From an uncultured Oscillospiraceae bacterium (GTDB lineage Bacteria > Bacillota > Clostridia > UMGS1810), in contig CAZSIY010000001.1 of NCBI GenBank assembly GCA_964606825.1, positions 1-37,590 of the forward strand: DNA of 37,590 nucleotides. Direction: 5' to 3'. A program made the translations under genes and the position numbers. This document shows, piece by piece, positions 9,866 to 27,974 of the stretch. The notes under the pieces are model-generated. The model saw only the letters and a list, made by a program, of their open reading frames with translations. It was not told where the DNA came from and did not search any database. Every line of letters starts with the position of its first letter. The stretch's first letter is position 1.

Positions 9866-12800
9866 ATGAAAAAAAGCTTTTTAAAATCCGCTTTCAGTGT
9901 GTTTCTCGCACTTGCGGTAGTCGCTCCTACGGCATCTTTTGCCGACAGCACGCCGGATACGAAAAATATTGCCTATGCGGAATTTTCGGGCAAAACGCCT
10001 GTGCAAAGCAATCTTACAGCCGTAATGGCAAGCGGAGACGTAAAAACCGCAACTTACGAGGGAAGAACAGGCTGGATATTGGGAAACAAAGACGCAGGCG
10101 AAGCTGCATCTACTATCAACGTGGATTTAAGTAACTATTTTGCCTATAAAGTTTCCGACGGATCTGTTTTTGAAATCGATGTGGATTATTACGATGCAGG
10201 CGGTGCGGTTTTCTCTGTTGTATACAGCGCCCAGGATCGCCCTAACCGATGGGCGGGCATGCAGAAAACGTCTTTCGGCGCAAAAGCCGCGAGAAATTCC
10301 ACAATTAAAGCTTGGCGCACAAAGACGTTTAGAATTCAAGACGCAAAGTTCGCAAACGATTTAAGTGATGTGGATTTTAAGATTTCTTCAAATATCTTAA
10401 ACGAAAACCACGATTTGGATAAAGTGACCACTGACTATGGTACAAAATACAGCACGTATTACCTTAATAGATATCCGCGGGTGTCATCTCCGGATGAAAT
10501 TGTAATAGGCGCCGTAAGAGTTCGCAAACTTGAAGAGAAAAATCCCCTTTCGGGAAAAATAACAACGTCCGCCTACGGTAATGTTTTCTATGATAACGAG
10601 GCGGCAACCTACGATGTAGCTCTTACAAACAATACCGATAAATCTTATGAGTTAAACGCGAGATATTATGCGGTGGATACCGAAAGCGGACTTATCGTTG
10701 ACGAAAAGAAAGATACACTCATAATCGGCGCCTCAGAGAGCAAAACCGTAACCGCGGTGCTCGATGATTTGCCCTACGGCGTGTTTAAGCTCTATGCCGA
10801 ATACACGGCAGAGGGAATAAAATCGCAATTTGTAACGGACACCTCCCGTGCGAGAGAGTCTAAAACGGCAAACCCCAGAGCCGGCACAAATATTCACTTT
10901 GACGGTGCTCAAAATTATCCGTCGCCGATAGATGCGCAGATGTCGCTTGTTAGGCGAAGCGGATATTCCTCGGTTCGTGACTCCGTGCGTTGGGCACAAA
11001 ACGAACCCGTAAAAGGTCAATATAAATTTAACCTTCCCACAGGCGATGCAATAGAGGGCGCCAAAAGATGGGGATTGGATTTCTTTGCCACATACAGCAG
11101 TGTCAACATGACGAATTTTTACCCGAATTCCGCTCCTATAAATGACGAAGAGGCATGGCAGGCATATAAAGATTATTGCCATTGGATAGCACATCAACTC
11201 GGCAATTGCGGCTATGCCGTAGAGTCCGACAATGAGTGGAACTTGCAATATCCCAACGGAACGGGCGAGCAATATACGTATATGTTAAAGGCGATATACG
11301 AGGGTACAAAAGCGGCAAATCCCGACATGAAGGTTATCGGCGTAGATATGGGTCTTGTAGACATTGACGTTATAAGAAGCTATGCCGAAGCGGGCGCACT
11401 TGAGTATATGGATGGTCTCTCTTTCCACCCTTACGATTGGATGCGTTCATTTGAAGCCGGTAACCAGATGCTTCAGGTAGCACGTGTTAAAGAGCTTTTA
11501 AAGGAATTCGGTCACGAAGATAAGGAAATATGGTGTACCGAAACCGGTTGGCATCAGCAACTCGATAACTGCTTTGTTACCGATATGGATAAAGCAAACA
11601 ACCTTTCAAGAGCTCTTCTTCAAAACGATGCCTTGAAATGGTACGACAGAATATATTTCTATGAATTCATGAACTCGGGAATAGAGCCTTCATACGGCGA
11701 GGCTACCTACGGAACAATTTATTCCGCATACGACGAAACTCCTTGCGCGGCTCTTCCGGCGTATATCGCCGCGGCGTGTGCAAACTGGGTGGTAGGCGAC
11801 GGTAATAACTTTGTAGATGCCGCTGACGGAAAAGGTGCCGACCTTACCGCGGGTGTTTACGCATATCGCTGGAACAGAGAAAATGACGACAACCTCGGAA
11901 ACCAAGTAATAGGCGTTTGGACGTCAAAAGATAGAGAGCCTTATGCGCTTGATCTCGGCGTAGACGAAGTTACCGCGCTTGATATCTACGGCAATGCGAG
12001 AACCATGAAAGCCGTAAACGGCGTGTTTAATTTCATGCTTACCGACAGCCCCATGTATTTGATAGGCGATTTTAAAAAGTTCGTATCTGCCGAACCTACG
12101 GTAAAAATCGACGAGATAATTTCCGTGGCAACGGTAAACGACACGGTTGTTGCAAATATCACAATTCCGAATTCCGACAAAATGACAATCGTTTCCAAAA
12201 ACGCGGATTTTGAAGTTGTTCAAAACGCCGGCTTTAAAAACGGCACCGCAAAATATGTTGTTTCAACTCCCGCACTTCGTTTTTATAACAAAAACGCAAT
12301 GTTTGACGTAATGGAAGGCGATAAGCTCATATACGCGGGAAGCATAAAAGTAAATAACGATAAAACCGTTACAATAAGTGAAAACCACGGCATGAGCGAC
12401 ACAAACAGCCTAAACCGTTGGTATATTGATTTAAATGTAACAAACAACAAAAACAGCGGCCCGATTTCGGGAACGCTGAAAATAAAAGCTCCGAGCGAGC
12501 TTACAAAATATGTGGGCGATATCAAAATAGAAAATTTGGCTCCCAAGGCAACGTACCGCCAAAGATTTTTCCTTCCGGAAATCGTTACCAAGGAAATGAG
12601 AAGCTACGACGTTGACCTAACCCTTGACAACGGCGAATATTTTTCCGACGGTCATACGCTCTTTTTTACCACCGTGCCCTATGCTTACGATAAACCCACA
12701 ATCGACGGAAAAGTTTCTCACGGAGAGTACAGAAATGATACCTGGTTCCCGATATCTCCAGGCGAAAACAGCGAAAACGTGCAGATTTTAGAGGCAAACA

Positions 12801-13324: not shown

Positions 13325-13345
13325 AAAATAAAAGGGAGTGCAGTT

Positions 13346-14923
13346 ATGAATAAAAAAATACCTTCGCTGGTTCTTGCGTGCACCGTAGCTCTTGCTTCAA
13401 CGGCAAGCGCCGCGGTTAGCATAGACAGCATCGGAACCAATATAAACTCAAGCACAGTTACCGTTAAGGGAAGCACAGACTATCCCAACGAAAATATTAT
13501 AATAACGGTAAATTCAAAGGACGTTTCCGATAGTGAGTTTTTCGATAAACTTGCTTATCAAAACCAAATTAAAACCAAAGATGACGGAAGTTTTTACCTC
13601 AGCTTTAAAATGAAAGGCGCAGATGCTTACACTCTTACTGTTTCCGCCGAAGCAGAAGATGCCGCAAAAGATTTTGTTTTTGCGGATACCGCAAACGTCA
13701 AAAGCGCTCTTGAACGCTTGAATAAGTCGGAAGATGTTGCCTTAGCTTTAAAAACAGACAGATACAACCTCGGTCTTTTTGTAAACGGCATAGACTCAGA
13801 GCCTAACTATTCTTCGCTTGCCACAAGAGTAAAGCCGCTTTTGCCCCTTAGCGTAACAGAGGAAAATGCATCTGTTTTAGCTCTTCAAAGACAGCTCATC
13901 TATCAGTATATAGCCGAGAAAAAGGTTGAAAATGTTTTTGATTATGACGAATATTTCGATATTTTCAAAGTGAACGGAAACGATGTTTTCACTCGTGAAA
14001 TTTTCAAACAGAGCCATGAGCTTGACGCAACGGCGCGCATAAGCGGCAAAGTAATATTGAATTACGACGATTTTTGCAGTGAAGTTACCGAAGCTATGAT
14101 TTTATCACTTGTAAAAAATGCAAACGGTTTCGGAAATGTGAAATCGGTGCTCGAAACTCATGCGAATTTCATAGGCATAAATACAGCAAATACGCCTGAC
14201 AGCGTGTATAAAAACCTCGCCGAAAACGATTTTGCGACTAAAGGCGCGCTTAAAGATAAGTTTAATTTTTTAAAGTCGCCAGACGACAGCGATTTCGGAA
14301 ACTCGGGCGGCGGCAAAACAAGCGGCGGCTCCGGCGGAAAACTCTCCGGTGGCAACGTAAATATCACTACCGACAACAGCACATTAAATGCTCCTTTTAC
14401 CGACCTTTTCGGTTACGACTGGGCAAAAGAGAGCATTGCAAAACTTAAAAACAGCGGTATTGTATCCGGTAGCGGCGACGGAAGATTTCTTCCCGCAAAA
14501 AGCGTAACACGTTCCGAATTTGTAAAAATGATATGTCTTGCTCTCAAGATTTCCGGCGGCGGAAATGTTACTTTCAATGACGTATTCAACGGAAGCTGGG
14601 ATGCAGAATATGTCAAAGCGGCATTCGGCGCGGGAATTGTAAACGGCATAAGCGGTACGCAGTTTGGCGGCAGCACAAACATTACCCGTCAAGATATGGC
14701 AGTTATCATAGTGCGCGCTTTAACATACGCTGGACGTGCACCTATCGGCACTTCAAACGAAAAATTTGCCGATGATGCGGGAGTTGCATCTTATGCAAAA
14801 GATGCCGTATATGCACTTCGCGCGGCAGGTATAATGCAAGGTGACGAAAACGGCAATTTTAATCCCACAGCACCCGCAACCCGCGCCGAAGCGGCAAAGG
14901 TTATATGTGCTGTACTTAACTGA
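13346..14923 (+). CDS. Secreted SLH-domain cell-wall-anchored protein (525 aa) with three C-terminal SLH repeats
   Basis: Signal peptide ...ASTASAA. Gly/Ser linker GNSGGGKTSGGSGGKLSGG. SLH repeats start at FTDLFGYDWAKESIAKL (about 14396), FNDVFNGSWDAEYVKAA and FADDAGVASYAKDAVYAL. Confidence 0.85.
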   Translation: MNKKIPSLVLACTVALASTASAAVSIDSIGTNINSSTVTVKGSTDYPNENIIITVNSKDVSDSEFFDKLAYQNQIKTKDDGSFYLSFKMKGADAYTLTVSAEAEDAAKDFVFADTANVKSALERLNKSEDVALALKTDRYNLGLFVNGIDSEPNYSSLATRVKPLLPLSVTEENASVLALQRQLIYQYIAEKKVENVFDYDEYFDIFKVNGNDVFTREIFKQSHELDATARISGKVILNYDDFCSEVTEAMILSLVKNANGFGNVKSVLETHANFIGINTANTPDSVYKNLAENDFATKGALKDKFNFLKSPDDSDFGNSGGGKTSGGSGGKLSGGNVNITTDNSTLNAPFTDLFGYDWAKESIAKLKNSGIVSGSGDGRFLPAKSVTRSEFVKMICLALKISGGGNVTFNDVFNGSWDAEYVKAAFGAGIVNGISGTQFGGSTNITRQDMAVIIVRALTYAGRAPIGTSNEKFADDAGVASYAKDAVYALRAAGIMQGDENGNFNPTAPATRAEAAKVICAVLN

Positions 14924-14934
14924 AACTTACGGAG

Positions 14935-17580
14935 GTGATTGCATTGAAAAAAACATTATCATTACTTTTGGCAATTTTAATGCTTTTCGGCGCTGTTCCC
15001 GCTTTTGCGGCAGATGCCGATATAAGCGAAACTTCGGCAACCGTTCAAGCAGATGAGGAAGTTTTACATCAGCAGGAAGTGCTCAAAGCGCTTGACCTTA
15101 TAAGCGCCGACTCTTACGGCGAGCTTGACAATTCAAAAGAGGTAACAAGGGTTGAATTTGCCTCTACCGTGGGAAAAATTTTGGAAATAAACCCTACAGT
15201 TTCCGCCGATACTTCGTATTATGCGGACGTTACGACCGACCACTGGGCAACCTACACTTTGAACAATCTCGTTGAAAGAGGTGTGCTCAGCGTTCCCGAG
15301 GATAAGAAATTTCGCCCCAATGACGTTATTTCTTACAGCGAAGCCGTAAAAATCTTTGTTTCGCTTTTGGGGTATGATGATTATGCAAAGGCAAACGGTG
15401 GCTACCCGGGCGGATATATTTCTGCGGCAAATCGTATTAAACTTTTAAACGGCGTTTCCGCAAATGAAAATGTTACTACGGGAATGCTTACCACACTTAT
15501 GTATAACGCTATCCATACAAAAGTGCTCGAAGTTGAAAAAATGGGAGACTCGGTAAAATATTCAAATGACAACGAAAGAACGCTCTTGTCGCTTTACAAA
15601 AGCATCTATTTTACTGAGGGTATCGTTGAAGCCGTAAACGGCCTCACACTCACCGGAAACAAAATAGGCGAGAATAAGTGCCTTATAGACGGAAAAATTT
15701 ATCAAAACGGCAAAATAAACGTTACGGACATGCTCGGATATTTTGTTACCGCTTATTATGAGGATAACGGCTCGGGCGTTAAAACACTTGTGCATTTAGA
15801 CGATACCGATAACAAAGTTTTAACCGTAAGAGCAGAAGATTTTAAATCTTACGAGGGTAACAAAGTATACTATTATAATGAAAACTACAAAGAAAAAAAC
15901 GTTAAGACAGACGGCTCTTTAACCGTTGTAAAAAACGGAAGCGTTGTAACAAAAGGACTTTCCGAGGCGTTTAAAGTAACAGAGGGCGAAATTCGCCTTA
16001 TAGATAATGACGACGACAATTCCTACGACATTATCTTTATAGAAGATTACAGAGTTGTGGTTGTAAAGAGCTTAAATAAAACTGACGGCGTAATCACAGA
16101 CGACCTCGACGTTAAAAATATCATCGACTATTCGAAAATAGACAGCGATAGCATTTGGGTGTACGGTTCAAACGGTGTTCTCATGGGCATAGATGCCATT
16201 ACCGCAGGTTCGGTTATAGATGTTGCGCTTTCCGAAAACGGTATGGTGGTGCATGTTTCAAGCAATGTGTTTGAAGGCACGGTAGAGGCTGTAAGTGATA
16301 GGGAGAAAAAAGTTACAATCGACGGCGTGGAGTATGAATACGTAGACAAAGCTATTAAAAAATATTCCGTTTCGGTTGGAAAACACGGTTCGTTTAAAAC
16401 CAATAAATACGGCAAAATAGCTTATTTCTCGGAAACAACATCGGCACTTAAAGGCGGATTTTTGGTTGATGTTTCAAACGACCAAAACGGTGTAAGCAGT
16501 GCCTTGAAAGTTAAAATTTTAACTACCGAAGGCGAAGTTAAAATTTATAACGTTTCCGACAAGGTGATAATCGACAGAGAGCGTGTTAAGAAAAACGTGT
16601 TTAAAAATCTCTCGGAAGTTAAAAATACCGTTGTGATGTATTCGGTAAATTCCAAAGAAGAGGTAAGCGAATTTGATACAATCAATTTAAACACTTCCGC
16701 CGGTGAAGACGAGTCTACACTTCAGCGCGTAGCAATATTGGACGACTCGGCTCAAGACCAGAGATATTATAAAGAGGACTCTAAGTTCGGAAGAAAGTAT
16801 TACATAAGTTCCGATGCGGTATTTTTCAGAGTGCCAACTTCCGGAAACGGTGCCGATGACGAATACGGCCTCGTTGATAAATCCGGTCTCGGCTCAAACA
16901 AAGGCTACGCGGCGGTTATCTATAAAACGGGTACCTCGCTTGAAAGCAATTTTGTTACTATGAAGCAAACAAAATACGACATAAACGACTGGTCACCTTA
17001 TTACTGGATAAAAGAAGTTCGCAAGGGCATCAGCAAAAACGGCGACGAAGTGTTTAAGCTCATTGCATACACCGAAAAAGGCCTTGAAACCACGCTTGAT
17101 TTAAGTGTAAATTACCCCGCAGAGGGTATTCCCGACACGGGCGACATTATCCGCATAGGTAAAGATGCTCAGGGCGTTGGCGGCTATATAGAAACCCATT
17201 ACGATTACACCACAAGAAAAGCCGGCTACTTTGACGTAGACGACGAGTGGGGTCACCGTGATATGGATAAATATTGGTATAATTTCTCCGACCTTTATAA
17301 CTACGACAGACTATGCTTTAGCAGTGCCGTTACAATTAACGGAAATATCATTGGAGTAACCAGAGAAGCAAGAGGTGCGGAAACAACCGACGAGTATTTT
17401 AAGGTATCGTCAAAAACGGCTGTTGTGGTTTACGACGCCGTAGAAGACACCTTCCGCTCGGGAACAATCGGCGATATAATGCCGGCAGACGTATACGGCG
17501 ACATGTGCTCAGAACTTATAGTTCACACTCGCTACGGAGCGCCGATATCCATTTTCGTAATTAATAATCGTGCAAATTAA
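14935..17580 (+). CDS. Secreted SLH-domain protein (about 880 aa) with an N-terminal SLH region and a large unassigned beta-rich body
   Basis: Signal peptide LLLAILMLFGAVPAFAADA. One clear SLH repeat, YADVTTDHWATYTLNNLVERGVLSVPEDKKFRPNDVISYSEAVKIFVSLLG, is flanked by degenerate ones. The start is either the GTG at 14935 or, better spaced from the GGAGG RBS, the TTG at 14944. Confidence 0.8.
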   Translation: MIALKKTLSLLLAILMLFGAVPAFAADADISETSATVQADEEVLHQQEVLKALDLISADSYGELDNSKEVTRVEFASTVGKILEINPTVSADTSYYADVTTDHWATYTLNNLVERGVLSVPEDKKFRPNDVISYSEAVKIFVSLLGYDDYAKANGGYPGGYISAANRIKLLNGVSANENVTTGMLTTLMYNAIHTKVLEVEKMGDSVKYSNDNERTLLSLYKSIYFTEGIVEAVNGLTLTGNKIGENKCLIDGKIYQNGKINVTDMLGYFVTAYYEDNGSGVKTLVHLDDTDNKVLTVRAEDFKSYEGNKVYYYNENYKEKNVKTDGSLTVVKNGSVVTKGLSEAFKVTEGEIRLIDNDDDNSYDIIFIEDYRVVVVKSLNKTDGVITDDLDVKNIIDYSKIDSDSIWVYGSNGVLMGIDAITAGSVIDVALSENGMVVHVSSNVFEGTVEAVSDREKKVTIDGVEYEYVDKAIKKYSVSVGKHGSFKTNKYGKIAYFSETTSALKGGFLVDVSNDQNGVSSALKVKILTTEGEVKIYNVSDKVIIDRERVKKNVFKNLSEVKNTVVMYSVNSKEEVSEFDTINLNTSAGEDESTLQRVAILDDSAQDQRYYKEDSKFGRKYYISSDAVFFRVPTSGNGADDEYGLVDKSGLGSNKGYAAVIYKTGTSLESNFVTMKQTKYDINDWSPYYWIKEVRKGISKNGDEVFKLIAYTEKGLETTLDLSVNYPAEGIPDTGDIIRIGKDAQGVGGYIETHYDYTTRKAGYFDVDDEWGHRDMDKYWYNFSDLYNYDRLCFSSAVTINGNIIGVTREARGAETTDEYFKVSSKTAVVVYDAVEDTFRSGTIGDIMPADVYGDMCSELIVHTRYGAPISIFVINNRAN

Positions 17581-17608
17581 AAAACATCTGATGAAAGGAA
17601 GAATTTCT

Positions 17609-18535
17609 ATGAAAAAGATTTCAATTATGGCATCGGTTCTCGCTCTTTCTTGCTCAATGTCGGCTTTAGCCTACATGGGCGCTTCCGATTGGGCAAATGC
17701 CGAACTTGAAAAAGCCGAAAAGTATGCGCTTATTCCCAACGTGCTTTCAAGTGCTGATGTTTCAAAGCCTATTACAAGAAGTGAGTTTGCGTCGCTTTCG
17801 GTAAAGCTCTTTGAGGCTCTCGGAAAAACCGAAATAGCCTCTCCCGATGTAAATCCATTTACCGATACTTCCGATGAGCAAGTTCTTAAAGCATATGCCG
17901 CAGGTATTACCACCGGCACAAGCGACACAACGTTCGAGCCCGATGCTCTTTTGTCAAGAGAACAAGCGGCAACAATGCTTGCAAGAACATACGCAAAATC
18001 TATGAACGCAGAAGCAAAACCCACGGGAGCCGCTCAAAAGTTTACAGATGATGAAAATATTTCCGACTGGGCGAAAGAAAGCGTTTATTTCATGGTTGAA
18101 AACGGTATAATCAACGGAATAGGGGAGGGCGTGTTTGCTCCTCAAAATGTAACGCTCGAGCAGGAAACCGAGTTTTATGCCAATTCCACAAGAGAGCAGT
18201 CTGTGGCTATTGCGGTTAGAATGTATGAAAAATTCAGTAAAGCCGAAGCGGAAAACACTTCTTCCGATTTGCTTAAAAACATGCCCGCTCATGCTTTCGG
18301 TGACTCTTTAAGCGAGAGTGTGAACGAGAAAAAAGCCGAGTATAAGTTTGAAAACGTTGCAGTAGAAAGCTATGATGCATACGCCGCCACAGTACGCTCA
18401 ATGTTCCCCGAGGTTTCCTATGAGCTTAATGAGGCACTTCAAAAAGCTCTTAAAGCCTCAAACGGCGAGTATCAAATTTTTATTCAATGGTCAAACGATG
18501 GTTCGACTTCCATTAAGTTTGAAAAATTGCAGTAA
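17609..18535 (+). CDS. Secreted SLH-domain protein (308 aa) with three N-terminal SLH repeats and a small C-terminal domain
   Basis: ATG at 17609 after a GAAAGGAAG RBS. Signal peptide ...SMSALA. SLH repeats are SDWANAELEKAEKYALIP..., FTDTSDEQVLKAYAAGITTG... and FTDDENISDWAKESVYFMVENGIING... Confidence 0.85.
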   Translation: MKKISIMASVLALSCSMSALAYMGASDWANAELEKAEKYALIPNVLSSADVSKPITRSEFASLSVKLFEALGKTEIASPDVNPFTDTSDEQVLKAYAAGITTGTSDTTFEPDALLSREQAATMLARTYAKSMNAEAKPTGAAQKFTDDENISDWAKESVYFMVENGIINGIGEGVFAPQNVTLEQETEFYANSTREQSVAIAVRMYEKFSKAEAENTSSDLLKNMPAHAFGDSLSESVNEKKAEYKFENVAVESYDAYAATVRSMFPEVSYELNEALQKALKASNGEYQIFIQWSNDGSTSIKFEKLQ

Positions 18536-18578
18536 AATCTGTGTCGGATAAAATCCGCATAAAAACAGGAGGATTGGC

Positions 18579-21215
18579 ATGAAAAAAATATTTTCATTAA
18601 CATTGGCTCTCGTCATGCTTGCATCATCATCTATTCCGGCATCGGCAAAATCGTTTAAAGCCGATAGTTTGCCGGAAACAGGTGTTATTATAAGCGATGA
18701 CTTTGAGTCGTACAACGTAGGCAGTACCCCACCTCTCAAGAGCAGTGGCGGTATCTTGTACAGAACCCATGTTATAACCGAGCAAGAAACAAACGGCAAC
18801 AAGTATGTTGAGTTCCCGGGAAAGAACAAGCAATACATCACCAGCTTGGAAGACCTCTACGGTGACAAGGTAGGCGTAAGAAGCGGAAAAGTAAAAATAC
18901 AGTACGATGTAAGGCTTCCAAAGCCTACGGTGACTTTGGGTTTTAACGAAAAAGGAAATCCCATCGGGCAAACTCTTTACCTTGTGTCTTACGGTTCAAA
19001 CGGCGGTTGGAGTAATGATGCAGCGGATAACAGAGCGTATTTGAGCGCGGTAAAAATTTATTCTTCAACAGATGAAAATTTGGACAACAAAGCCTATATA
19101 TGCTTTAACGATGAAGCCATTTCCGGTTCTGCCGCTTCTATAAATTCCGACGGCTCCAACTACCGTATTATTGACTTTGACAAATGGTACACCGTTACCA
19201 CAGTTATAGATTACGACTCAAAAGAGGCGTTTCATTACATAAACGGTGAAAAAATTACTTATTACAAGGGCACGGCAGATGCCGCAATGGCAAAAAGCTA
19301 CGAGCACTCTTGGCTCTCGTTCAACAGTGCCGATGACTTAAACACCGGAAGCGCTTTCCAAATGGATAATTTTCTCACAGAGCGCCTGGGAGAGGGCACA
19401 CTTTCGGCTTCCTTTGCGGGTGCGGGAAATAATTATGTAGATGTTGACTTTAGCGGCGTAATCGAGCAAGACGGTGCGATAGACTCTGAGTATTTCACCC
19501 TTAAAAAGCTTGGTGAAGATGACGGTGTAATCCCCGCTTCTATTAGCTATACAAACGGTAAAACAATGCGCTTTACCTTTGATAACGAATTGGAAAAAGG
19601 CATAAACTATCAGCTTTTTATAAATGCTCCTATTCACGAAGTTGGTAACAATCTTATAAGCCTTCCGGAAAACACGGCAATTTTCTTTGCCACCGAGGCA
19701 GATGTTGAGCATGCGGAGCTTGTAGAGCAAAATTTTGAAGACGTGTCTTTTCCTGAATCGGCGGAAGAGGGCGAGAATTTTGAAGATTTTACCTACTATG
19801 GTAAAAAAGACGGCGAGTCTGCCGAATTTGTCAAAGTTCCTTCGCTTACTTCAAAATACATATCAAAAGAAAGCGACAGATTTTCAGCCGTTGAGGGCAA
19901 GGCAAGCGTTATGAAAATTTCTCATAACGACTCGGAACCTGCAAATACCGCTCATAAAACTGTTTTCTTCCCATTTGCTGATGGCAGAGAAATCACAAGC
20001 GGCACACTTACCGCAGAGTTTGATATGTATGTAGACGGCGACGACATGCCCTGGCAAACATCTTTTGCTTTCGGTTTGCACGACTCTTCAAGAACAGGCA
20101 CCTCGTTTAACAGAACAGACAATTGGTCGGACGCAACGCTTTTCTTCGGTCTTACCGATTGGTCACACAAAAAGAAAAAAGCGGTAGTGCCGGCACTTGC
20201 CGATAATAAAGCATATATACCGAGCTATTATTTAGATAACGGCAAAAGAGATGAAACCTGGAGCGACAGATACAAGGCGGCGGAAATAGGCTATTCCGCA
20301 ACTATAACCGATAACCTTGCTGCATGGCACACATACAAACTCGTTGCCGATATATCCGAGAGCAAATTCGAATTGTATTTAGACGGCAAAAAGCTCGGCA
20401 CTTACAATTATTTCCCCGGAAATGCCACGCGCGGTACTTACGACGGATTTGTAATAGAGTCTGTAAACGCCGCTTCGGTAGACAGCGAGCTTAACAATTG
20501 CTACTATATAGATAACGTAAAGGTTAGCTACGACTCCCTTGCACCCATGGTTGTAGAGGCTGTTGACTTTGAAGATTGCGAGGGCAAAGAAAAAGTTTTG
20601 GCTTCCACGCTTCCTGCGGGCGTAAAGAATGTAAATATTACTTTCTCAAAAGAACTTGATTCTTCAATGGATTATTCATCATTTGTTGAGGTAGAAGGCG
20701 CAAAAGACGGCTTTACTTGCTCGTCAAACGGCAAAGTGCTCACTATAGACCTTACAAATTGCCTGCTTCCCTCAAACGATTGCAAAATAGCTTTAAAGAG
20801 CGGAATTGAAGCGGCAAAAGGCGCACTTCTCGCAAATGACGTAACATTTAAGTTTGCAACTGACGGCGGTGCTGTAAAGTTTTTTGCACCTGTTATCAAA
20901 AAGAATGATGCAAAACTTTCTTCCGTGGCAAACGTTTCAGCCGGAGACAGTATCACAGCCGAGGTAAATGTAATAAATACCACAGCCGATGGCGTTGGCG
21001 CTTATGTGGTTCTCTTAGCATATAAAGACGGCTACCTTGCGGGTATTGCCCACACAGGTTATGTGCCTACGGTAGACAGACTTTACAGCGAGAACATCAC
21101 AGCCTCAGTTACCGCCTCGGATGGTTTTGTGGGCGCAGACAGCTACAAAGCTATCGTTTTCGACACACTCTCGGGTGTGCATCCCCTTGCCGATGCTTGT
21201 GAAGTTTTAAAATAG
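18579..21215 (+). CDS. Secreted non-catalytic multi-domain protein (878 aa): LamG/ConA-like, Ig-like, LamG/ConA-like, Ig-like, shared C-terminal module
   Basis: Signal peptide ...IPASA. The jelly-roll-like units end in QMDNFLTERL and YIDNVKVSY. SbsA-type Ig-like segments are present (VDVDFSGVIEQ...FTLKK...). I see no catalytic motifs. The C-terminal module is shared with the next two genes. Confidence 0.7.
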   Translation: MKKIFSLTLALVMLASSSIPASAKSFKADSLPETGVIISDDFESYNVGSTPPLKSSGGILYRTHVITEQETNGNKYVEFPGKNKQYITSLEDLYGDKVGVRSGKVKIQYDVRLPKPTVTLGFNEKGNPIGQTLYLVSYGSNGGWSNDAADNRAYLSAVKIYSSTDENLDNKAYICFNDEAISGSAASINSDGSNYRIIDFDKWYTVTTVIDYDSKEAFHYINGEKITYYKGTADAAMAKSYEHSWLSFNSADDLNTGSAFQMDNFLTERLGEGTLSASFAGAGNNYVDVDFSGVIEQDGAIDSEYFTLKKLGEDDGVIPASISYTNGKTMRFTFDNELEKGINYQLFINAPIHEVGNNLISLPENTAIFFATEADVEHAELVEQNFEDVSFPESAEEGENFEDFTYYGKKDGESAEFVKVPSLTSKYISKESDRFSAVEGKASVMKISHNDSEPANTAHKTVFFPFADGREITSGTLTAEFDMYVDGDDMPWQTSFAFGLHDSSRTGTSFNRTDNWSDATLFFGLTDWSHKKKKAVVPALADNKAYIPSYYLDNGKRDETWSDRYKAAEIGYSATITDNLAAWHTYKLVADISESKFELYLDGKKLGTYNYFPGNATRGTYDGFVIESVNAASVDSELNNCYYIDNVKVSYDSLAPMVVEAVDFEDCEGKEKVLASTLPAGVKNVNITFSKELDSSMDYSSFVEVEGAKDGFTCSSNGKVLTIDLTNCLLPSNDCKIALKSGIEAAKGALLANDVTFKFATDGGAVKFFAPVIKKNDAKLSSVANVSAGDSITAEVNVINTTADGVGAYVVLLAYKDGYLAGIAHTGYVPTVDRLYSENITASVTASDGFVGADSYKAIVFDTLSGVHPLADACEVLK

Positions 21216-21549
21216 TATGTTTTCTTGCCGTCGGTAACGCGGCAGGAAAAAAACTTACACAAAGTGCAAAAAGTGTCGGCGGGCAGGGTTATATGCCGCA
21301 TTTTCAGAGCTTTTGCAAGAAGATAAAATTCTCGTACTGGCAAACCGCAAAAAAAGAAACAAAGGTTTCTCCGGCGGCACCTATACACTTTTTGTCTGTA
21401 TGAGAACGAAGTTTTCTTGCAAACAGCAAAAGAAAATTCGGCAAAATCCTCGCCTGCGGGCATGATTGAGAAAACGTAATTATCACCGATTGCAACATGC
21501 TTTTCTCCGTGCGCGGTGTTAATAATAAAAATTTTAGGAGGAATAAAAA

Positions 21550-23367
21550 ATGAAAAAATTGTTATCAATGTTGTTAGCTTGTGCCTTGCTGGTATCTTGT
21601 GTGCCGGCGATGGCAAGTATTGTAAATCCGGTTCCATATCCCGAAACCGGCGTACTTTTTCACGAAGATTTCAGCGACTACGATGTTGCGGATAATAGTG
21701 AAACTAGTGTTTCGAATATGACAACTTTGAATACCAATTGGAATTATACCAATACCAATTATGGCGGATATATTACAAATAACAATTCGGGTCATGGAGT
21801 TGGCGATCCTTGTTTTTATTGGGGAACTCTTTGGTATCAAGTTCCGGCTAATGCAGGAATTGTAAATACCGGAGTGATCGAATACTCTTTTGATATGAAA
21901 TTACGCAATTGCGCCGATCCATCGAGATATGATGTAAGTTTCGAAAAATCCAATGTAGGACATCATGTGTTTACAGCTGTTAAAACCGGCAATAAAGATG
22001 CTCCCGATGGCGCTTTGAAATATTACTTTTCAAGCTATGACCATACCGGAACAAACGCAAGCGCTTCTACTAATCCGATTGTAGTTGACGGAACTTTGGA
22101 AAATTGGGCTAACATAAAAATAAAGGTTGATTTTTCAGAAGGCTCGGTTGAATATTATGTTGATAATATCAAAGTTGGCGGCTGGAACGGAAATGTAAAT
22201 TGTTACGCTTTAAGTAATTACATAGGCTTTATAAATACTGCTCCGACAAATAAGTACCTGTATCTTGATAATTTTAAAATTGAAAGATTCAAAAAGACGA
22301 TAGAACCCGAAAAACAGAGTTCTTATTCGATTAACGGAACAGTTCCCGCAACCGGTCTTATCATGAAAGAAACATTTGATGGCATATCCGAAACAAAGGA
22401 ACTTTCAAAGGCAAACGGCGGTATTTTTTACGGTGGAATAACAGCTGATATTGTAAATGTTGAATCAAATAAACATATTAAAGTCACCGGAAATAACGCT
22501 TATTTAGCTTATGAACTTTGCAAACATTTGACTACGCAAGAAGATATATCTTCAGGTCAGCTTGCTTTGTCGTATAAAGTTATGGTTCCGAAATGCGATG
22601 AGGAAATGACATCAGGAAAGCAGAATTTACTAGCGATGTGTGTTCAATCACATGCAGGTTGGTGGGGTGATGCAACCACAGCTACTAATGGAAGAGCTTA
22701 TTTAAACAGCGTATGTTATGGAAACACGAATCCGTATGTTCAATATGCGACAACAATAAGCGGTGGTGGTTTTGTATCAGATGATACAAGTGCAGACGTA
22801 AAAGTAACAAAAAATATTGCTTTTGATACTTGGTATACAATAAAGGTTGTTATTGATTATGATAATAACGTGGTAAAGCAATATTTGGATAACGAATGTG
22901 TATGCACTGTGAATTATGCTGACAGTAATGAGAATAAATTAAAGTTTGATGTTATGCAGCTTACAAAACGTAAAGATGATAACGAAAACTCAAACTTTGG
23001 CATTTGTATGGATGATTGGAGAATTGAACGCTTAGACACCACAACCGTAGCTTCTTCCACCAAAATCACAAAAGGTGGAACAGAACTTACAAAATCCGAT
23101 GTTGCTTCTCTTGCGGGTACTGAACTTTCCGTAAACTTTACAGCGGCAAGCTCCGGAAAAGGCAATGTTGTTGTAGCAGCATACAAAGGCAATGAACTTA
23201 TTGGCATTGTTTGCTCGCTTGACAACACTTTAAAAGCAGGCGAAAACAGCGTAAGCGTTACCGCAAGCAGTAATTTCAACGGCGCTGATACGGTTAAGGC
23301 ATTTGTTTTTGATAACTTTAACAACATGTACCCCGTAGCCGATGCTGCTGAATATTTAGCAAATTAA
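21550..23367 (+). CDS. Secreted non-catalytic protein (605 aa): two LamG/ConA-like domains plus the shared C-terminal module. Paralog of the 878-aa protein.
   Basis: Signal peptide ...VPAMASI. PETGVLFHEDFSD and PATGLIMKETFDG mark the domain starts; LDNFKIERF and MDDWRIERL mark the domain ends. The second domain matches the first domain of the 878-aa protein (GWWGDATTATNGRAYLNSV / FDTWYTIKVVIDYD vs GGWSNDAADNRAYLSAV / FDKWYTVTTVIDYD). Confidence 0.7.
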   Translation: MKKLLSMLLACALLVSCVPAMASIVNPVPYPETGVLFHEDFSDYDVADNSETSVSNMTTLNTNWNYTNTNYGGYITNNNSGHGVGDPCFYWGTLWYQVPANAGIVNTGVIEYSFDMKLRNCADPSRYDVSFEKSNVGHHVFTAVKTGNKDAPDGALKYYFSSYDHTGTNASASTNPIVVDGTLENWANIKIKVDFSEGSVEYYVDNIKVGGWNGNVNCYALSNYIGFINTAPTNKYLYLDNFKIERFKKTIEPEKQSSYSINGTVPATGLIMKETFDGISETKELSKANGGIFYGGITADIVNVESNKHIKVTGNNAYLAYELCKHLTTQEDISSGQLALSYKVMVPKCDEEMTSGKQNLLAMCVQSHAGWWGDATTATNGRAYLNSVCYGNTNPYVQYATTISGGGFVSDDTSADVKVTKNIAFDTWYTIKVVIDYDNNVVKQYLDNECVCTVNYADSNENKLKFDVMQLTKRKDDNENSNFGICMDDWRIERLDTTTVASSTKITKGGTELTKSDVASLAGTELSVNFTAASSGKGNVVVAAYKGNELIGIVCSLDNTLKAGENSVSVTASSNFNGADTVKAFVFDNFNNMYPVADAAEYLAN

Positions 23368-23377
23368 TTTTACTTTT

Positions 23378-23408
23378 ACAATGCGGCAGAGGTTTTCTGC
23401 CGCATTGT
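23378..23408 (+). other. GC-rich perfect hairpin (13-bp stem, 5-nt loop) without a U-tract, directly after the 605-aa gene
   Basis: ACAATGCGGCAGA (23378-23390) / TCTGCCGCATTGT (23396-23408). Followed by GGGTAAAC. It has the same ATGCGGC...GGTT...GCCGCAT architecture as the hairpin at 8004-8032. Confidence 0.5.
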
Positions 23409-23446
23409 GGGTAAACAACTTAAATTCTACAAAAGGAGAACAGCTA

Positions 23447-26263
23447 ATGAAAAGAAAAATTTGCTCACTTGCGCTCGTTTTTGCGTTTTTTACATCTTTT
23501 GTGCCGTCGTTTAGTGCTCTTGCGGCAGTAAATTCGGCTTCGGCTGTATTTTCGTCAAAAAGCGCGGCAACAGAAAATATGAGCGTTTCCATGGGCAACG
23601 GAAGTACGGGCACCATTACCGAAGCAGGCGGGAAAAACGGATGGCTTTTGGACGCTTCGGATAAATCATCATATATTAAGTGTGATATTGACGACAGTGT
23701 TTTAAATCAGCTTGAAAGCACTGCGAAAATAAAAATGACCGTTGAATATTACGACGGTGGCAGAGGCGGTTTTGCAGTGTATTACGATAGCCGCGAAGAA
23801 GACGAAAACAGTGTTTTTACACAGCTTTATAACTCGGGTGAGTGGAAAACCACCACGTTTTATTTAAACGATGCGTATTTCAACAACGGCATAAAGCTAA
23901 ATGACTTTGTAATTATTGCAAACGACACCTTGTTTAAGACTTCCACAAATCAAATAATGGGCGTATCTTCCGAAGACGTGATAATAGGTGGGGTAAGCGT
24001 GGAGCTTGCAGATGAGCTTGCGCCCTACGATGTTACCATTGCCACGGACAATTTCGGAAATATATTCTTTGAGGGGGATACCATAGAATTCGGCGTAACG
24101 CTTGCCGATGCATCGGGAAAATATCCTTCGGGGATAATTCAGTACAACGTTAAAGATGTAAATGGAAAAAGCGTTCTAAAAAAAAGCGTGCCTTTTTCAA
24201 AGAATTTCAGCTCTTTTGAGATAGAGTCGCTTCCTTTCGGAACATACACCCTTGAAGTTGCGATTACAAATTCCGACTCAAATATTAACCAAAAAGAGAT
24301 TGCCGATTTTTCCTATTCGAAAAAGGCGGCAAATCCCAATCCGATTTTCGGTACGAATATTCACTTTGACTGGTCGGGTTACGACAGAACCGCTATAAGA
24401 GGTTTTGCCGACCTTGCAAAAAATGCGGGATATTCCATAACGCGAAGCTCTATAAGATGGAACCTCATAGAAACAAGCGAGGACAATTTCAAACTTCCCG
24501 ACAATATCGAATATTCAAATAAATATATAGATCAAATAGGTCTTGAGATGCTCGGAATTTTAACGGCTGATTGCACATATAAAATAGACGGCGAAACCAT
24601 AGGTTGCGGCGGCCCCGTAAAACCTCATACCGAAAATCAAATAAAAGCATATGCGGATTATTGCGCATGGACTGTGGATGCGCTTAAAGATTATACCGAC
24701 TATTGGTCATACATAAATGAATTTAACTTAACTCCCGGCGGCGGACACGACGATAGCACAAAAGAGCCTTATATGGCAATTTTGCCCCAAGCTTATGAGG
24801 CAATAAAGGGAGCAAATCCTCATTCCGTTATTGTTTCCGGAGAAGTGGGATCGTACTGGTTGGCAAACCGCGATTGGATTGATTATTGCTTAAATCACGG
24901 CGTTTTGGCTTACAGCGATGTTTTCTCTCTCCATGCATACGACCAGGTGGGCGGCCCCGAAACATGGTATATTTATCCGGCAATAGAGCATTTTAACGAC
25001 AAAATTCATGCCAAAAATTCTTCAAAGCGTGCGTGGATGACGGAAACAGGTTGGCCTTCTAAAGATACCGGTGTAAGCTATGCCACACATTCCATGGTGC
25101 CTTATGAAACTCAGGCGGCGTTTTATGCTCGCTCAATGGGCTTGAATTCCGACCCGGAGAGAATAGACAAAGTGATTTATTATTCGTTTATAGACAATAA
25201 CCGCGGCTATTTTTACATTGAAGATAACTACGGAATTGTACATTCTCACGATTGGCGCACACCCTTTGCGGCAAAGCCGGCTTATGTTGCGGTAGCGGCG
25301 TCGAATGCTATTTTGGACGGCTACACCTTTAAAGAGGAACTTAGCGGCGCAAATCACGACACTCTCCTTGATAATGGTTGGGATACCGATGAATACGGTG
25401 CTGTGCCGATAGATTACACCGATGCATATTTTATGCGCCGATTCGAAAATGCCTACGGTGACGAAATTCTCATGGCTTGGCAAAGCGAAGACACAAGCGC
25501 CGGCTCATTTACCTACGACAGCGACAAAGCATATTTTGAAGTGTATGACATGTACGGCAACAAAACCATTGTAGAAAACACAAACGGAAGATATGAGGGC
25601 AATTACTCTTCTCGCCCCGTGTATATTCATCCTACGGACAATCCCGATTATACGGGAATTAACGCTGAAAACTTAAGCAGTGCTTGGAAAGTGGGTTCTG
25701 TTGGAAAAGTGAGCGTAAAAGTAAATCTTCCCAAAGATACTGAAAAAGGCTCCTCTTTAAAGGTGGTTGCGGCAGCATATGATGAAAACGGCGCTCTTAT
25801 GAACACCCAAATAAAAGACGCTACATATGCCGGAGGCGAAATTGAAATAAATTTTGCCGGTGCAAAAATGAAAAACTGTAAAAATATAAAGATTTTTGCT
25901 TTAAACAGCTTCGGAAGTCTTATTCCGCTTTTGGAAAACGAGGTAATACCAGAGTTTGGCGATGAGGCGAGCGTGCATTATTCTTCAAGCGGAAAAACCG
26001 TTACAATAAGCGGAAAACTTCCCGTTGAAAAAATACGTACAAACGTCATCATGACAGCATATTCGGGAGATACCAACCGTGCGGATATAAATACCGCCGA
26101 GGGATTTTTAAGCTCTGTTGTGGCTCAGGATATGACAATAACCGACCTTGACGGCAAATATTCCTTTGCTTTTAAACTCCCCGATAGTTTTGAGGGCGAC
26201 AGTATAAAAGTACATATCGGCGCAAAGAACAATTCACTCCAAAAAATTGTATATTTGAAATAG
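23447..26263 (+). CDS. Secreted multi-domain glycoside hydrolase-like protein (938 aa), paralog of 9866..13324: N-terminal beta-domain, Ig-like, clan GH-A barrel, beta-sandwiches including the shared module
   Basis: ATG at 23447 after an AAAGGAG RBS. Signal peptide ...SFSALAAV. GTNIHFD, TRSSIRWNLIE, YINEFN (Glu codon 24719-24721) and WMTETGW (Glu codon 25043-25045) all align with the 1152-aa paralog. Confidence 0.75.
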   Translation: MKRKICSLALVFAFFTSFVPSFSALAAVNSASAVFSSKSAATENMSVSMGNGSTGTITEAGGKNGWLLDASDKSSYIKCDIDDSVLNQLESTAKIKMTVEYYDGGRGGFAVYYDSREEDENSVFTQLYNSGEWKTTTFYLNDAYFNNGIKLNDFVIIANDTLFKTSTNQIMGVSSEDVIIGGVSVELADELAPYDVTIATDNFGNIFFEGDTIEFGVTLADASGKYPSGIIQYNVKDVNGKSVLKKSVPFSKNFSSFEIESLPFGTYTLEVAITNSDSNINQKEIADFSYSKKAANPNPIFGTNIHFDWSGYDRTAIRGFADLAKNAGYSITRSSIRWNLIETSEDNFKLPDNIEYSNKYIDQIGLEMLGILTADCTYKIDGETIGCGGPVKPHTENQIKAYADYCAWTVDALKDYTDYWSYINEFNLTPGGGHDDSTKEPYMAILPQAYEAIKGANPHSVIVSGEVGSYWLANRDWIDYCLNHGVLAYSDVFSLHAYDQVGGPETWYIYPAIEHFNDKIHAKNSSKRAWMTETGWPSKDTGVSYATHSMVPYETQAAFYARSMGLNSDPERIDKVIYYSFIDNNRGYFYIEDNYGIVHSHDWRTPFAAKPAYVAVAASNAILDGYTFKEELSGANHDTLLDNGWDTDEYGAVPIDYTDAYFMRRFENAYGDEILMAWQSEDTSAGSFTYDSDKAYFEVYDMYGNKTIVENTNGRYEGNYSSRPVYIHPTDNPDYTGINAENLSSAWKVGSVGKVSVKVNLPKDTEKGSSLKVVAAAYDENGALMNTQIKDATYAGGEIEINFAGAKMKNCKNIKIFALNSFGSLIPLLENEVIPEFGDEASVHYSSSGKTVTISGKLPVEKIRTNVIMTAYSGDTNRADINTAEGFLSSVVAQDMTITDLDGKYSFAFKLPDSFEGDSIKVHIGAKNNSLQKIVYLK

Positions 26264-26268
26264 TGTTT

Positions 26269-26306
26269 TCCCCGAGAAAAGCGTTGCTTTTTTCGGGGAA
26301 TTTTTT
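26269..26306 (+). terminator. Rho-independent terminator ending the surface-protein gene string
   Basis: 14-bp stem with one mismatch, TCCCCGAGAAAAGC (26269-26282) / GCTTTTTTCGGGGA (26286-26299), followed by ATTTTTT. Confidence 0.75.
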
Positions 26307-26377
26307 CGATGAAAAATATTGACACAACCCTTAAAAAGTATTATACTTATGTTACTAAAAAGAACAGGAGAAATAAA

Positions 26378-27538: not shown

Positions 27539-27583
27539 GGGGTAAGGTAAGATAATATCGAGCGAGAAGAGAGAGTTTTATGT

Positions 27584-27882
27584 GTGATACGTTATACAAC
27601 AGATGAAATAAAAACAGTTCTTGTGCCTGCTTTTTATGCGCTATAACGTAAAGAAAGTTGTTCTTTTCGGGTCATATGTAAAAGATCTTGCAAATTCCGA
27701 AAGTGACGTTGACTTGCTTCTTGACGGCGGATCAAAGGGATTGAATTTTGTAGGATTGATAGAAGATGTTCGCTAAGTGCTTGATAAAGAGGTTGATGTT
27801 TTTTGACGATACTCATATAATCGCAGGTTCGAAAATTCAGTCGGAAATTTTAAAGTACGGAGTTGTGATTTATGAAAAATAA
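27584..27882 (+). pseudogene. Decayed MNT-type (Pol-beta superfamily, MntA-like) nucleotidyltransferase antitoxin gene
   Basis: Three frames join into IRYTTDEIKTVLVPAFYA / YNVKKVVLFGSYVKDLANSESDVDLLLDGGSKGLNFVGLIEDVR*VLDKEVDVF / DDTHIIAGSKIQSEILKYGVVIYEK. The reading frame is broken by a +1 shift near 27636-27645, an in-frame TAA at 27774-27776 and a +1 shift in the T6 run at 27799-27804. The GS...D.D motif is the minimal NTase signature. Confidence 0.6.
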
Positions 27883-27945
27883 GGTAATCGTTGAAAAAAC
27901 ATATCGAAAAAATCAACTTTTTAAACACTTTTTTATAAAAAACAC

Positions 27946-27974
27946 TTGCATTTAATGCCAAAGTGTGGTAAAAT
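27946..27974 (+). promoter_or_regulatory. Sigma-A promoter of the rimP-nusA-infB operon, with an extended -10
   Basis: TTGCAT (27946-27951), 17-nt spacer ending in TGG, TAAAAT (27969-27974). Confidence 0.65.

Follow-up and report, generated by a model that had tools for sequence, protein, structure and literature searches.

A gene cluster conserved among uncultured gut Clostridia joins a sugar importer to GH39-like enzymes, LamG proteins and SLH proteins, and hints at a tether between them

To our knowledge, cellulosomes and the Sus-like systems of Bacteroidota have supplied most of what has been learned about glycan capture at the surface of gut bacteria, and little is known of how the many uncultured SLH-bearing Clostridia keep enzymes and binding proteins there. 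The locus analyzed here, part of a 37,590-nt stretch of DNA (the window), raises the question of how secreted enzymes and lectin-like proteins could be kept at the wall when SLH repeats are carried by other products of the same gene string. The first-pass annotation had described this string as seven consecutive plus-strand genes for Sec-signal proteins. All seven open reading frames were recovered, and 7/7 products, here P1 to P7, begin with a Sec-type signal peptide: P1 (9866–13324), P2 (13346–14923), P3 (14935–17580), P4 (open reading frame 17570–18535, likely start 17609), P5 (18579–21215), P6 (21550–23367) and P7 (open reading frame 23381–26263, likely start 23447), all on the plus strand, the likely starts of P4 and P7 being taken from ortholog N-termini and the database gene call. 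As reported before, the spacers up to 21215 are short (13, 21, 11, 28 and 43 nt, in order, through the P1–P5 stretch), and the only strong plus-strand terminator in the string (26268–26300 and a T-run) stands at its end; this intrinsic terminator (26268–26306, plus strand) has a 15-bp stem with 7 G-C pairs ahead of the T-run. The domain calls of that earlier account of the parts also stood, but it had overlooked a CBM9 in P1, a C-terminal module common to P5, P6 and P7, and a gap of 334 nt between P5 and P6 (21216–21549). Compared with the related loci L002 and L006, this spacer carries an insertion of ~190 nt; it also contains an imperfect inverted repeat (21312–21344 / 21391–21423). No canonical terminator was found in it, and no Rfam family matched anywhere in the window, this spacer included. 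The proximal ~90 nt upstream of P6 are conserved, so a P6–P7 promoter is possible and, given also the length of the gap, P6 and P7 may form a separate transcription unit.

Pfam agrees with the placement of the string downstream of a sugar-binding lipoprotein and two permeases, and divergent from a YesM/YesN-like pair. The sensor kinase (2118–3839, minus strand; His_kinase PF06580 and HATPase_c) and the regulator (3839–5416, minus strand; Response_reg and the AraC-HTH domain HTH_18) make up a YesM/YesN-type two-component system that is syntenic in locus L001, at 65% and 80% identity. Divergent from this pair are the genes for a lipoprotein SBP (6605–7996, plus strand; SBP_bac_1, PF01547), whose lipobox AVGC/AAGC is conserved among orthologs, and for permease 1 (8055–8969) and permease 2 (8956–9852), both plus-strand BPD_transp_1 proteins. 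Together (6605–9852) they constitute an importer of the CUT1 type, and no ATPase gene for it lies alongside. The solved structures nearest to the SBP are generic CUT1 oligosaccharide binders, and for that reason we dropped the attempt to read a substrate from SBP similarity. Between the regulator and the SBP lies ORF334 (5443–6396, minus strand), membrane-anchored through an N-terminal hydrophobic segment, with zero matches in Pfam, NCBIfam or the PDB; it is kept in L001 at 52% identity, and from its position we infer that it belongs to the system. A regulator, a carbohydrate transporter and the GH39-like enzymes P1 and P7 are co-localized in the window, as in Gram-positive polysaccharide-utilization loci (PULs), and L001, L008 and L012 have kept this arrangement.

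All loci compared are metagenome assemblies of uncultured organisms. Gene order is syntenic in L001, L002, L006 and L012, persisting in L012 at 30–40% protein identity, and the genes co-occur in altered order in L008, L013 and L014; P1-like, P2-like and P3-like genes are found together in at least six lineages. Retention of the order down to 30–40% amino acid identity indicates that the arrangement is not due to chance. The comparison of gene neighborhoods that the first-pass annotation had proposed as a check therefore came out in its favor: the cluster is a real, deeply conserved unit of uncultured gut Clostridia.

The two products singled out earlier as catalytic by their clan GH-A motifs, P1 and P7 (the latter taken as 23447–26263), are paralogs (E 1e-50), and both align with PDB 5JVK (E 4.8e-15 and 4.8e-11, respectively). 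This structure, GH39wh2 from Bacteroides cellulosilyticus, is the sole solved one significantly similar to them, and it shares their layout of Ig-like domain, (beta/alpha)8 barrel and beta-sandwich. The alignment, in which the N-E and T-E motifs correspond, indicates a clan GH-A (beta/alpha)8 fold with the N-E acid/base and the E nucleophile on strands 4 and 7. However, 5JVK is very distant, and P1 and P7 add an N-terminal domain and, at the C-terminus, a CBM9 or the pair of domains described below. P1 consists of the N-terminal domain common to P7, an Ig-like domain, the (beta/alpha)8 barrel (~10868–11815), beta-sandwiches and a C-terminal CBM9 (CBM9_1, 12785–13312, E 5e-13), and P7 repeats the P1-type core with its catalytic domain at ~24353–25330. 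The N-E and T-E-x-G-W motifs, which contain both catalytic Glu residues, are invariant in 25/25 family members examined. The Pfam GH39 family, PF01229, does not match P1 or P7 and is recorded for the distant P1-like protein P0020. From these alignments, P1 and P7 are predicted to be catalytically intact GH39-like glycanases of clan GH-A. In plasmid collections, P1 matched only remote clan GH-A proteins and the body of P3 had no match.

Sixteen homologs of P7 were found. One of them, in L007, lies within a Bacteroidota SusC/SusD PUL alongside GH31 and GH20, which speaks for this enzyme family being used in foraging. The substrate might instead be the cell's own envelope glycans (SCWP, S-layer glycan or exopolysaccharide), which the enzymes would remodel or recycle while the importer salvaged the fragments. 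PslG, a GH39 enzyme, trims the Psl that its own cell makes, and the closest solved structure of P1 and P7 falls in the PslG/GH39wh2-like open-groove branch of GH39. The presence of three SLH proteins in a single operon points the same way, as does L013, where a related cluster adjoins a CsaB-type pyruvyl transferase (PF04230), a flippase and glycosyltransferases. Nevertheless, we give this reading little credence: control is by a sugar regulator of the YesM/YesN or AraC type, the CUT1 importer is tightly linked in the window and in L001, L008 and L012, a member of the enzyme family lies in a SusC/SusD PUL, the neighbors in L014 are GH16 and GH2, and biosynthetic genes are absent from the window.

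SLH domains bind pyruvylated secondary cell-wall polymer, and the SLH repeats noted earlier were verified, as triads, in P2, P3 and P4. The CsaB-type pyruvyl transferase that adjoins the L013 cluster has no counterpart in the window; its presence in L013 is counted in favor of the wall-associated reading given below. P2 comprises an N-terminal beta-domain (P2N, 13415–13690), a helical middle, a Gly/Ser linker and three SLH repeats (14393–14905; Pfam E 3e-35) that match SbsB and Sap in the corresponding regions (E 1e-21 to 1e-16); orthologs are present in L001, L002, L006, L008, L012 and L013. P3, of 881 aa, joins an SLH triad (~15067–15579) to a beta-rich body of ~650 aa. In its AF2 model (pLDDT 86.3), the triad superimposes with TM ~0.7 on the SLH domains of SpaA and Sap, including complexes with pyruvylated ManNAc, and the body returned no credible fold match in the PDB. 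Sequence and profile searches of the PDB with P2 and P3 gave matches through SLH only. The P3 family is very large (2,101 representatives at 50% clustering, E<=1e-30), and a metagenome scan with a narrower P3 alignment retrieved one locus only; this uncharacterized SLH family now has a confident structural model without a known fold match. P4 is small, with SLH repeats (E 9e-19) and a C-terminal alpha/beta domain of ~100 aa. Its conserved 'ALSC' is a possible lipobox, and its orthologs are 67–69% identical, falling to 34% in L012.

The remaining non-catalytic products, P5 and P6, had been read as LamG/ConA-like with Ig-like domains. P6 consists of tandem LamG jelly rolls followed by the C-terminal module (CTM, 23098–23364), and a Foldseek search with its AF2 model, of moderate quality (pLDDT 64.8), returned laminin LG, neurexin LNS, galectin and BoNT-HcN with probability ~1.0. 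P5 has two LamG-like domains homologous to the P6 units (E 4e-15), a Big_5 domain (E 2e-9) and the CTM (20946–21212). Pfam Laminin_G_3 appears only as weak or faint matches in orthologs, and neither protein has a PDB match by sequence or profile search. On the strength of the P6 model, the earlier assignment is retained with P5 and P6 as tandem LamG lectin-like proteins whose carbohydrate binding is putative.

How, then, might P1, P5, P6 and P7 be retained? The earlier statement that the enzymes and lectins have no conventional anchor withstood motif, Pfam and TM checks: the four proteins have no C-terminal LPXTG, TM tail or dockerin Ca-loop pattern and no Pfam match to cohesin or dockerin, and P2, P3 and P4, searched whole or segmented, have no Pfam match to cohesin. 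Pfam and NCBIfam searches of whole proteins and ten segments detected nothing besides CBM9, SLH and Big_5. A search for an overlooked anchoring domain by HMM and structure, which the first-pass annotation had suggested, likewise revealed none of a conventional kind. Two apparent signals were rejected. The 'LVSC' of P6 fits a lipobox but is absent in all orthologs, and the LPETG of P5 occupies residues 31–35, at the start of LamG, and is conserved as [LIE]P[EQD]TG, so that neither lipoprotein anchoring of P6 nor sortase anchoring of P5 is indicated.

What P5, P6 and P7 do have in common is the CTM, a segment of ~85 aa for which no relative was detected in Pfam or the PDB and which we regard as a previously undescribed module. 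An HMM of the CTM matches P5 at E 3e-32 and also an internal copy in P7 (25706–25939). The module was present in each P5, P6, P7 and P8, as well as in accessory proteins from L008, L009, L012, L013 and L014, and absent from P1–P4; every non-SLH accessory protein bears it except P1. It is the best-conserved segment of P5, at 95–97% identity between L002 and L006 versus ~67% overall, and the most conserved segment of P6 too. In P7, the CTM is directly followed by a terminal domain (25961–26260, E 2e-32) homologous to P2N (hhalign probability 97.9%, E 4.7e-13). The same adjacency in cis occurs a second time in L014, where a natural fusion of 1302 aa joins a P5-like protein with its CTM to the entire mature P2. 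Homology between CTM and P2N themselves was considered and rejected (hhalign probability 0.2%). Adjacency in cis is no more than suggestive of interaction in trans, and these arrangements hint that the CTM may hold P5, P6 and P7 on the wall protein P2. The neighbor of the CTM being a P2N-type domain, the evidence points to P2 and not to the three SLH proteins generally. P1, with its CBM9 and without a CTM, would need a different retention route, and P3 and P4 are left with no partner assigned to them.

The same observations could also be accommodated by an ordinary PUL, in which enzymes and lectins are freely secreted, the SLH proteins act independently on the wall as glycan binders or structural components, and the CTM, which could be a plain structural beta-sandwich, serves folding or stability. 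The L014 fusion would then mean that a wall-anchored lectin is advantageous, and would not imply docking of separate proteins. The failure to detect cohesin, dockerin or any other known interaction module agrees with this explanation, as do the lack of a CTM in P1, the lack of recognizable CTM relatives that would indicate binding, and the possible P6–P7 promoter, which loosens the operon argument. It accounts less readily for a CTM whose conservation exceeds that of the functional domains before it and which stands twice beside a P2N-type domain. Furthermore, the Bacteroidota homologs of P7 (754–768 aa), which live without SLH partners, cover only 74% of P7 and have neither the CTM nor the terminal domain. 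Retention of the CTM at the edge of the variable P6 sequence, described next, is a further difficulty. We consider free secretion possible, on the doubtful side.

The P6 alleles are 30–48% identical among strains whose neighboring genes are 93–100% identical. The boundaries of the allele swaps are sharp at the DNA level and mosaic, and the CTM is kept across P6 alleles that are otherwise unalignable. Judged from these comparisons, P6 is a strain-level allelic cassette, a hypervariable slot. An invertible promoter or shufflon as its cause was rejected, no substantial inverted repeats flanking P6, and identities of only ~30% between alleles argue against a diversity-generating retroelement. The cluster as a whole also evolves faster than the flanking housekeeping genes: between L006 and L002, SpoIIGA and SigE are 99–100% identical, and the cluster proteins 62–87%. 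This faster pace, together with the extreme strain-level diversity of P6 and its mosaic boundaries, would suit an adhesion function or a host or phage interface, with LamG adhesins or decoys, P6 variation driven by immune or phage selection, and the glycosidases as accessories. However, every lineage keeps the transporter, the regulator and two intact glycanases together with the cluster, and the variation is concentrated in one slot, not spread over all the surface proteins; we regard such a function as very improbable.

We return to a Gram-positive PUL whose extracellular part is a wall-associated ensemble, including the CTM–P2 tether and the P6 cassette, and give this reading an even chance. 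P1 and P7 would cut extracellular glycan, the LamG proteins P5 and P6 would capture it, and the resulting oligosaccharides would enter through the ABC importer. P5, P6 and P7 would be held at the wall by docking of their CTMs on the N-terminal beta-domain of P2, a two-part tether resembling dockerin and cohesin in function and unrelated to them in sequence, and P1 would depend on its CBM9 for retention or act in free form. The LamG body of P6 would be swapped between strains by recombination at the conserved signal-peptide and CTM ends, altering ligand or antigenic specificity while export and docking were kept. The broader claim, that CTM and P2N form a new, sequence-unrelated counterpart of dockerin and cohesin in a widespread SLH-anchored glycan-harvesting machine, with P6 as a plug-in cassette exchanged by recombination between a constant export signal and docking module, we hold to be unlikely. 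The locus offers a conserved parts list together with a binary CTM–P2N hypothesis. A docking pair, if true, would give surface display a new, orthogonal protein-protein tether. The natural swapping of lectin modules at strain level, in a machine that is otherwise constant, could account for glycan niches that differ from strain to strain or for antigenic variation at the surface of gut bacteria.

The functional logic is that of Bacteroidota Sus-like systems, with non-catalytic binding proteins for capture and enzymes at the surface, and a sensor in control of a dedicated importer, whereas envelope, anchoring and transporter all differ and the window has no SusC/SusD. Binding proteins at the SusE/F position are variable, as P6 is here. 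The Gram-positive PULs of Roseburia, Eubacterium and Paenibacillus likewise combine extracellular glycoside hydrolases with a CUT1 SBP, two permeases and a regulator that is a two-component system or of the AraC type. They differ from the present locus in its three SLH proteins, its CTM-bearing LamG proteins, its hypervariable lectin slot and its enzymes without SLH or sortase anchors of their own. In cellulosome anchoring (SdbA, OlpB, Orf2p), separate SLH proteins likewise stand beside secreted glycan-active proteins, attachment is SLH-based, and the partners share a non-catalytic C-terminal module, as P5, P6 and P7 do. SLH triads for such anchoring are present here, but neither cohesin nor dockerin was detected, the SLH proteins have no repeated receptor module, a dedicated sensor and ABC importer are linked, several of the partners are lectins, and docking is putative. 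An SLH scaffold that works without cohesin and dockerin has been described in Paenibacillus curdlanolyticus B-6, where S1, a 'scaffolding-like' SLH glycoprotein whose 863 aa comprise SLH repeats at the N-terminus and then ~740 aa of unassigned function, assembles with a xylanase in a manner that depends on S1 glycosylation (PMC6823336). P3 (881 aa) resembles S1, by description, in size and layout only; neither of the published S1 peptides (KP723173.1) occurs in 150 P3-family representatives, and here P2, not P3, is the indicated docking partner. The experimental precedent of S1 is nonetheless counted as support for an SLH scaffold of the non-cohesin kind.

All seven of the consecutive plus-strand ORFs described at 9866-26263 (P1-P7, also used for their products) were recovered, with ortholog N-termini and the database gene call placing the starts of P4 and P7 later than first given, at 17609 and 23447. 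Each product carries the claimed N-terminal Sec-type signal peptide. The sugar-binding lipoprotein and two permeases reported upstream were identified as an SBP_bac_1 protein whose lipobox is conserved (SBP) and two BPD_transp_1 proteins; the divergent two-component system pairs a His_kinase/HATPase_c sensor with a Response_reg+AraC regulator. Minus-strand ORF334 (5443-6396), situated between the response regulator and SBP, is a membrane-anchored protein without a Pfam, NCBIfam or PDB relative; it is kept at 52% identity in the Hadza gut MAG locus L001 and might act in sensing as a third partner. No ABC ATPase gene adjoins SBP and the permeases in the window (6605-9852), L001, L008 or L012, and the importer presumably relies on a shared MsmK-type ATPase encoded elsewhere.

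The short spacers were borne out, with gaps from P1 to P5 of 13, 21, 11, 28 and 43 nt, as was the single terminator, the only strong one on the plus strand being at 26268-26300 plus a T-run. Absent from the first-pass annotation was the 334-nt P5-P6 spacer (21216-21549), in which we found no canonical terminator and no Rfam match. The ~90 nt proximal to P6 are conserved in relatives across species, and an extra ~190 nt, missing from loci L002 and L006, include an imperfect 33-nt inverted repeat (21312-21344 / 21391-21423). Given the length of this gap and its conserved proximal portion, P6 and P7 may be driven from their own promoter.

A check of co-conservation found the gene order kept in L001, L002, L006 and L012. 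One related species (L001, L002, L003, L010 and L011) has the arrangement sensor kinase-response regulator-ORF334 / SBP-permease-permease-P1...P7, together with an eighth gene, P8, whose product combines LamG with the ~85-residue C-terminal module of P5, P6 and P7 (CTM). The order is the same in L006, a third lineage. Far more distant is L012, which retains the full order SBP-permease-permease-P1-P2-P3-P4-P5-like-P5/P6-like-P7 at identities of 43% (SBP), 40% (P1), 34% (P2), 30% (P3), 34% (P4) and 29% (P7). Its P5/P6-like gene (16350-19021) is broken into two ORFs (168 and 732 aa) overlapping by ~30 nt, and may be a frameshift or a pseudogene. In L008, L013 and L014, where P3 is 25-28% identical, a P1-like protein with CBM9, a P2-like SLH protein, a P3-like protein and CTM-bearing proteins occur in other orders. 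The downstream neighbours are NTP_transf_5 and then rimP-nusA-infB in the window (26309-37590), and spoIIGA-sigE in the lineage of L002 (16945-21866), L006, L010 and L011; the genomic position of the cluster thus varies among relatives. The Logan contig L003 (1-6000) lacks two blocks relative to L001 (5086-14663), one of about 1.2 kb covering ORF334 and the SBP upstream region and one of about 2.3 kb covering both permeases and the first ~175 codons of P1; the contig is a true deletion variant or else an artefact of assembly.

The claimed composition of two GH-A enzymes, two LamG proteins and three SLH proteins agrees with domain searches and models, and we consider these calls correct on the basis of sequence, fold and paralogy evidence. 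P1 (1152 aa) has a GH39-like core followed by CBM9 (E 5e-13), and P7 (938 aa) a GH39-like core, a CTM copy and a domain of the type found at the N-terminus of P2 (P2N). The two are paralogs over ~750 residues (E 1e-50), and their sole relative among solved structures is 5JVK (E 4.8e-15 for P1, 4.8e-11 for P7), the GH39 enzyme GH39wh2 of Bacteroides cellulosilyticus (PMC6933502). In 25 family members neither the N-E acid/base motif nor the [TS]-E-x-G-[WY] nucleophile motif varies. Because the Pfam GH39 model misses P1 and P7, matching a distant P1-like protein, we name them predicted GH39-like clan GH-A enzymes. The Bacteroidota locus L007 (1-17842) is a SusC/SusD polysaccharide-utilisation locus (PUL) with two P7-type enzymes of 756 and 754 aa, adjoining GH31, GH20, FAD oxidoreductase, DUF4973 and DUF5722 genes. 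Such Bacteroidota proteins end after the catalytic core, without CTM and P2N domains. Occurrence of P7-type enzymes in this setting supports a predicted glycan-foraging role, beside which remodelling of self-glycan, of the PslG type, appears improbable, and L007 may help to trace what this enzyme family acts on.

P5 (878 aa) contains two LamG-like units, Big_5 and CTM; P6 (605 aa) contains tandem LamG jelly rolls and CTM. Pfam found nothing in P6, but its AF2 model is all-beta at moderate confidence (pLDDT 64.8), its top Foldseek matches are uniformly LamG/ConA-type jelly rolls (probability about 1.0), and its LamG units are shared with P5 (E 4e-15). The statement that enzymes and lectins lack a recognised anchor withstood HMM and structure searches, which turned up no conventional anchor in P1, P5, P6 or P7: neither SLH, C-terminal LPXTG, TM tail or dockerin loops, nor any cohesin/dockerin Pfam match. 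The P6 sequence LVSC was rejected as a lipobox, not being kept in orthologs, and LPETG in P5 (residues 31-35; 18669-18683) was rejected as a sorting signal, being the conserved first strand of a LamG domain. In P5 and in P6/P8 orthologs, a [LIE]P[EQD]TG motif comes immediately after the signal peptide, where the first LamG unit begins; it resembles a sortase motif but is N-terminal, without TM and basic tail.

Among the SLH proteins, P2 (525 aa) comprises the beta-domain P2N, a helical region, a Gly/Ser linker and three SLH repeats, P3 (881 aa) an SLH triad and a beta-rich body of ~650 aa, and P4 (about 308 aa) SLH followed by a small C-terminal domain. In the P3 model (AlphaFold2, 37-sequence family alignment, pLDDT 86.3) the triad can be superposed on the SLH domains of SpaA and Sap (TM about 0.7), whose matched structures include complexes with pyruvylated ManNAc, and structure comparison gave no credible PDB match for the body. 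An exhaustive HMMER search (E <= 1e-30) found 2,101 P3-family representatives at 50% clustering; of the 150 top-ranking ones most are full length (850-900 aa), and the annotation of the 150 reads merely 'SLH domain-containing protein [Clostridia bacterium]'. The Cys of an 'ALSC' sequence at the P4 N-terminus (17609-17680) is conserved in 4/4 orthologs and could belong to a lipobox, which would make P4 both lipid- and SLH-anchored; this reading is ambiguous because a site for signal peptidase I (ASA/ALA) comes after it. In L013 (12897-16782) the P3-like gene is followed immediately by genes for a PF04230 CsaB-type pyruvyl transferase, a flippase and an FrhB-like protein, beyond which come GT2 and acetyltransferase genes and a further SLH protein; these are genes of SLH-ligand synthesis.

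CTM was overlooked in the first-pass annotation and is without a sequence relative in Pfam or PDB. A CTM-derived HMM located the module at the very C-terminal end of all P5, P6 and P8 orthologs, internally in every clostridial P7 and C-terminally in accessory proteins of L008, L009, L012, L013 and L014, and never matched P1-P4; it is thus on all non-SLH accessory proteins bar P1. Within the P6 model it is the segment predicted with the highest confidence (pLDDT 80-93), and it is the most conserved part of P5, with 95-97% identity between L002 and L006 (whole P5 about 67%) and 65-67% between the window and L002 (whole P5 53%). L014 (6077-9985) encodes a natural 1302-aa fusion, of which residues 1-751 match the entire neighbouring P5-like protein, including LamG-like, Big_5 and CTM regions (E 1e-80), and residues 770-1298 the complete mature P2 of other lineages (P2N, helical region, three SLH repeats); L014 carries no P2 gene besides this fusion. 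P7 of four lineages has, directly after CTM, a terminal domain homologous to P2N (hhalign probability 97.9%, E 4.7e-13; HMM scan agrees). CTM itself proved unrelated to the P2N-type domain on comparison. P5, P6 and P8 thus terminate in CTM and P2 starts with P2N, while two independent architectures place the modules side by side in cis; by indirect, Rosetta-stone reasoning, we propose CTM-P2N as a tether, with a true docking pair rated less likely than not. Free secretion, with the SLH proteins independent, would accord with the missing conventional anchors, yet CTM is absent from Bacteroidota homologs, where no SLH partners exist, and we consider this reading rather unlikely.

P6 is a hypervariable allelic cassette with sharp DNA boundaries (window 21550-23367; L002 10001-11866; equivalents in L010, L011, L003 and L001). 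Between strains of one species, P2, P3, P4, P5, P7 and P8 are 93-100% identical and SigE 100%, whereas P6 alleles are merely 30-48% identical, one pair excepted (74%). DNA identity stays at 95-100% as far as about codon 20, where the signal peptide ends, falls to 20-50% in the LamG body and rises again on reaching, or inside, the CTM-coding end. In one allele pair the last 260 nt are already 97-100% identical, showing mosaicism; allele kinship departs from species relationships, and the L001 allele has a P8-like N-terminal half. Between L006 and L002, SpoIIGA and SigE are 99-100% identical and the cluster proteins merely 62-87%. A primarily adhesive or antigenic role, into which such variability might be read, seems very improbable for a string that includes an importer and predicted enzymes.

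Taken together, the cluster would constitute a sensor-controlled Gram-positive PUL with a wall-associated extracellular part, in which P2-P4 would bind pyruvylated secondary cell-wall polymer, P1 and P7 depolymerise a glycan, P5 and P6 capture it, and a CUT1 importer take in the products; we judge this whole picture, wall association through the SLH proteins included, to be about evenly balanced. The best-supported specific proposal within it is that P5, P6 and P7 are held through CTM-P2N. The searchable literature yielded no account of this combination, CTM/P2N, the P3 family size or the P6 cassette behaviour. SLH anchoring, gpPULs, GH39 and LamG lectins are each already known; what appears new is their conserved combination, the CTM and P2N modules with their split and fused distribution, the size of the uncharacterised P3 family and the cassette behaviour of P6. 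A published precedent for SLH scaffolding without cohesin is S1 of P. curdlanolyticus, which has 863 aa, with SLH repeats at its N-terminus and about 740 aa whose function is unknown, and assembles with Xyn11A in a glycan-dependent manner (PMC6823336); it is similar to P3 in size and layout.
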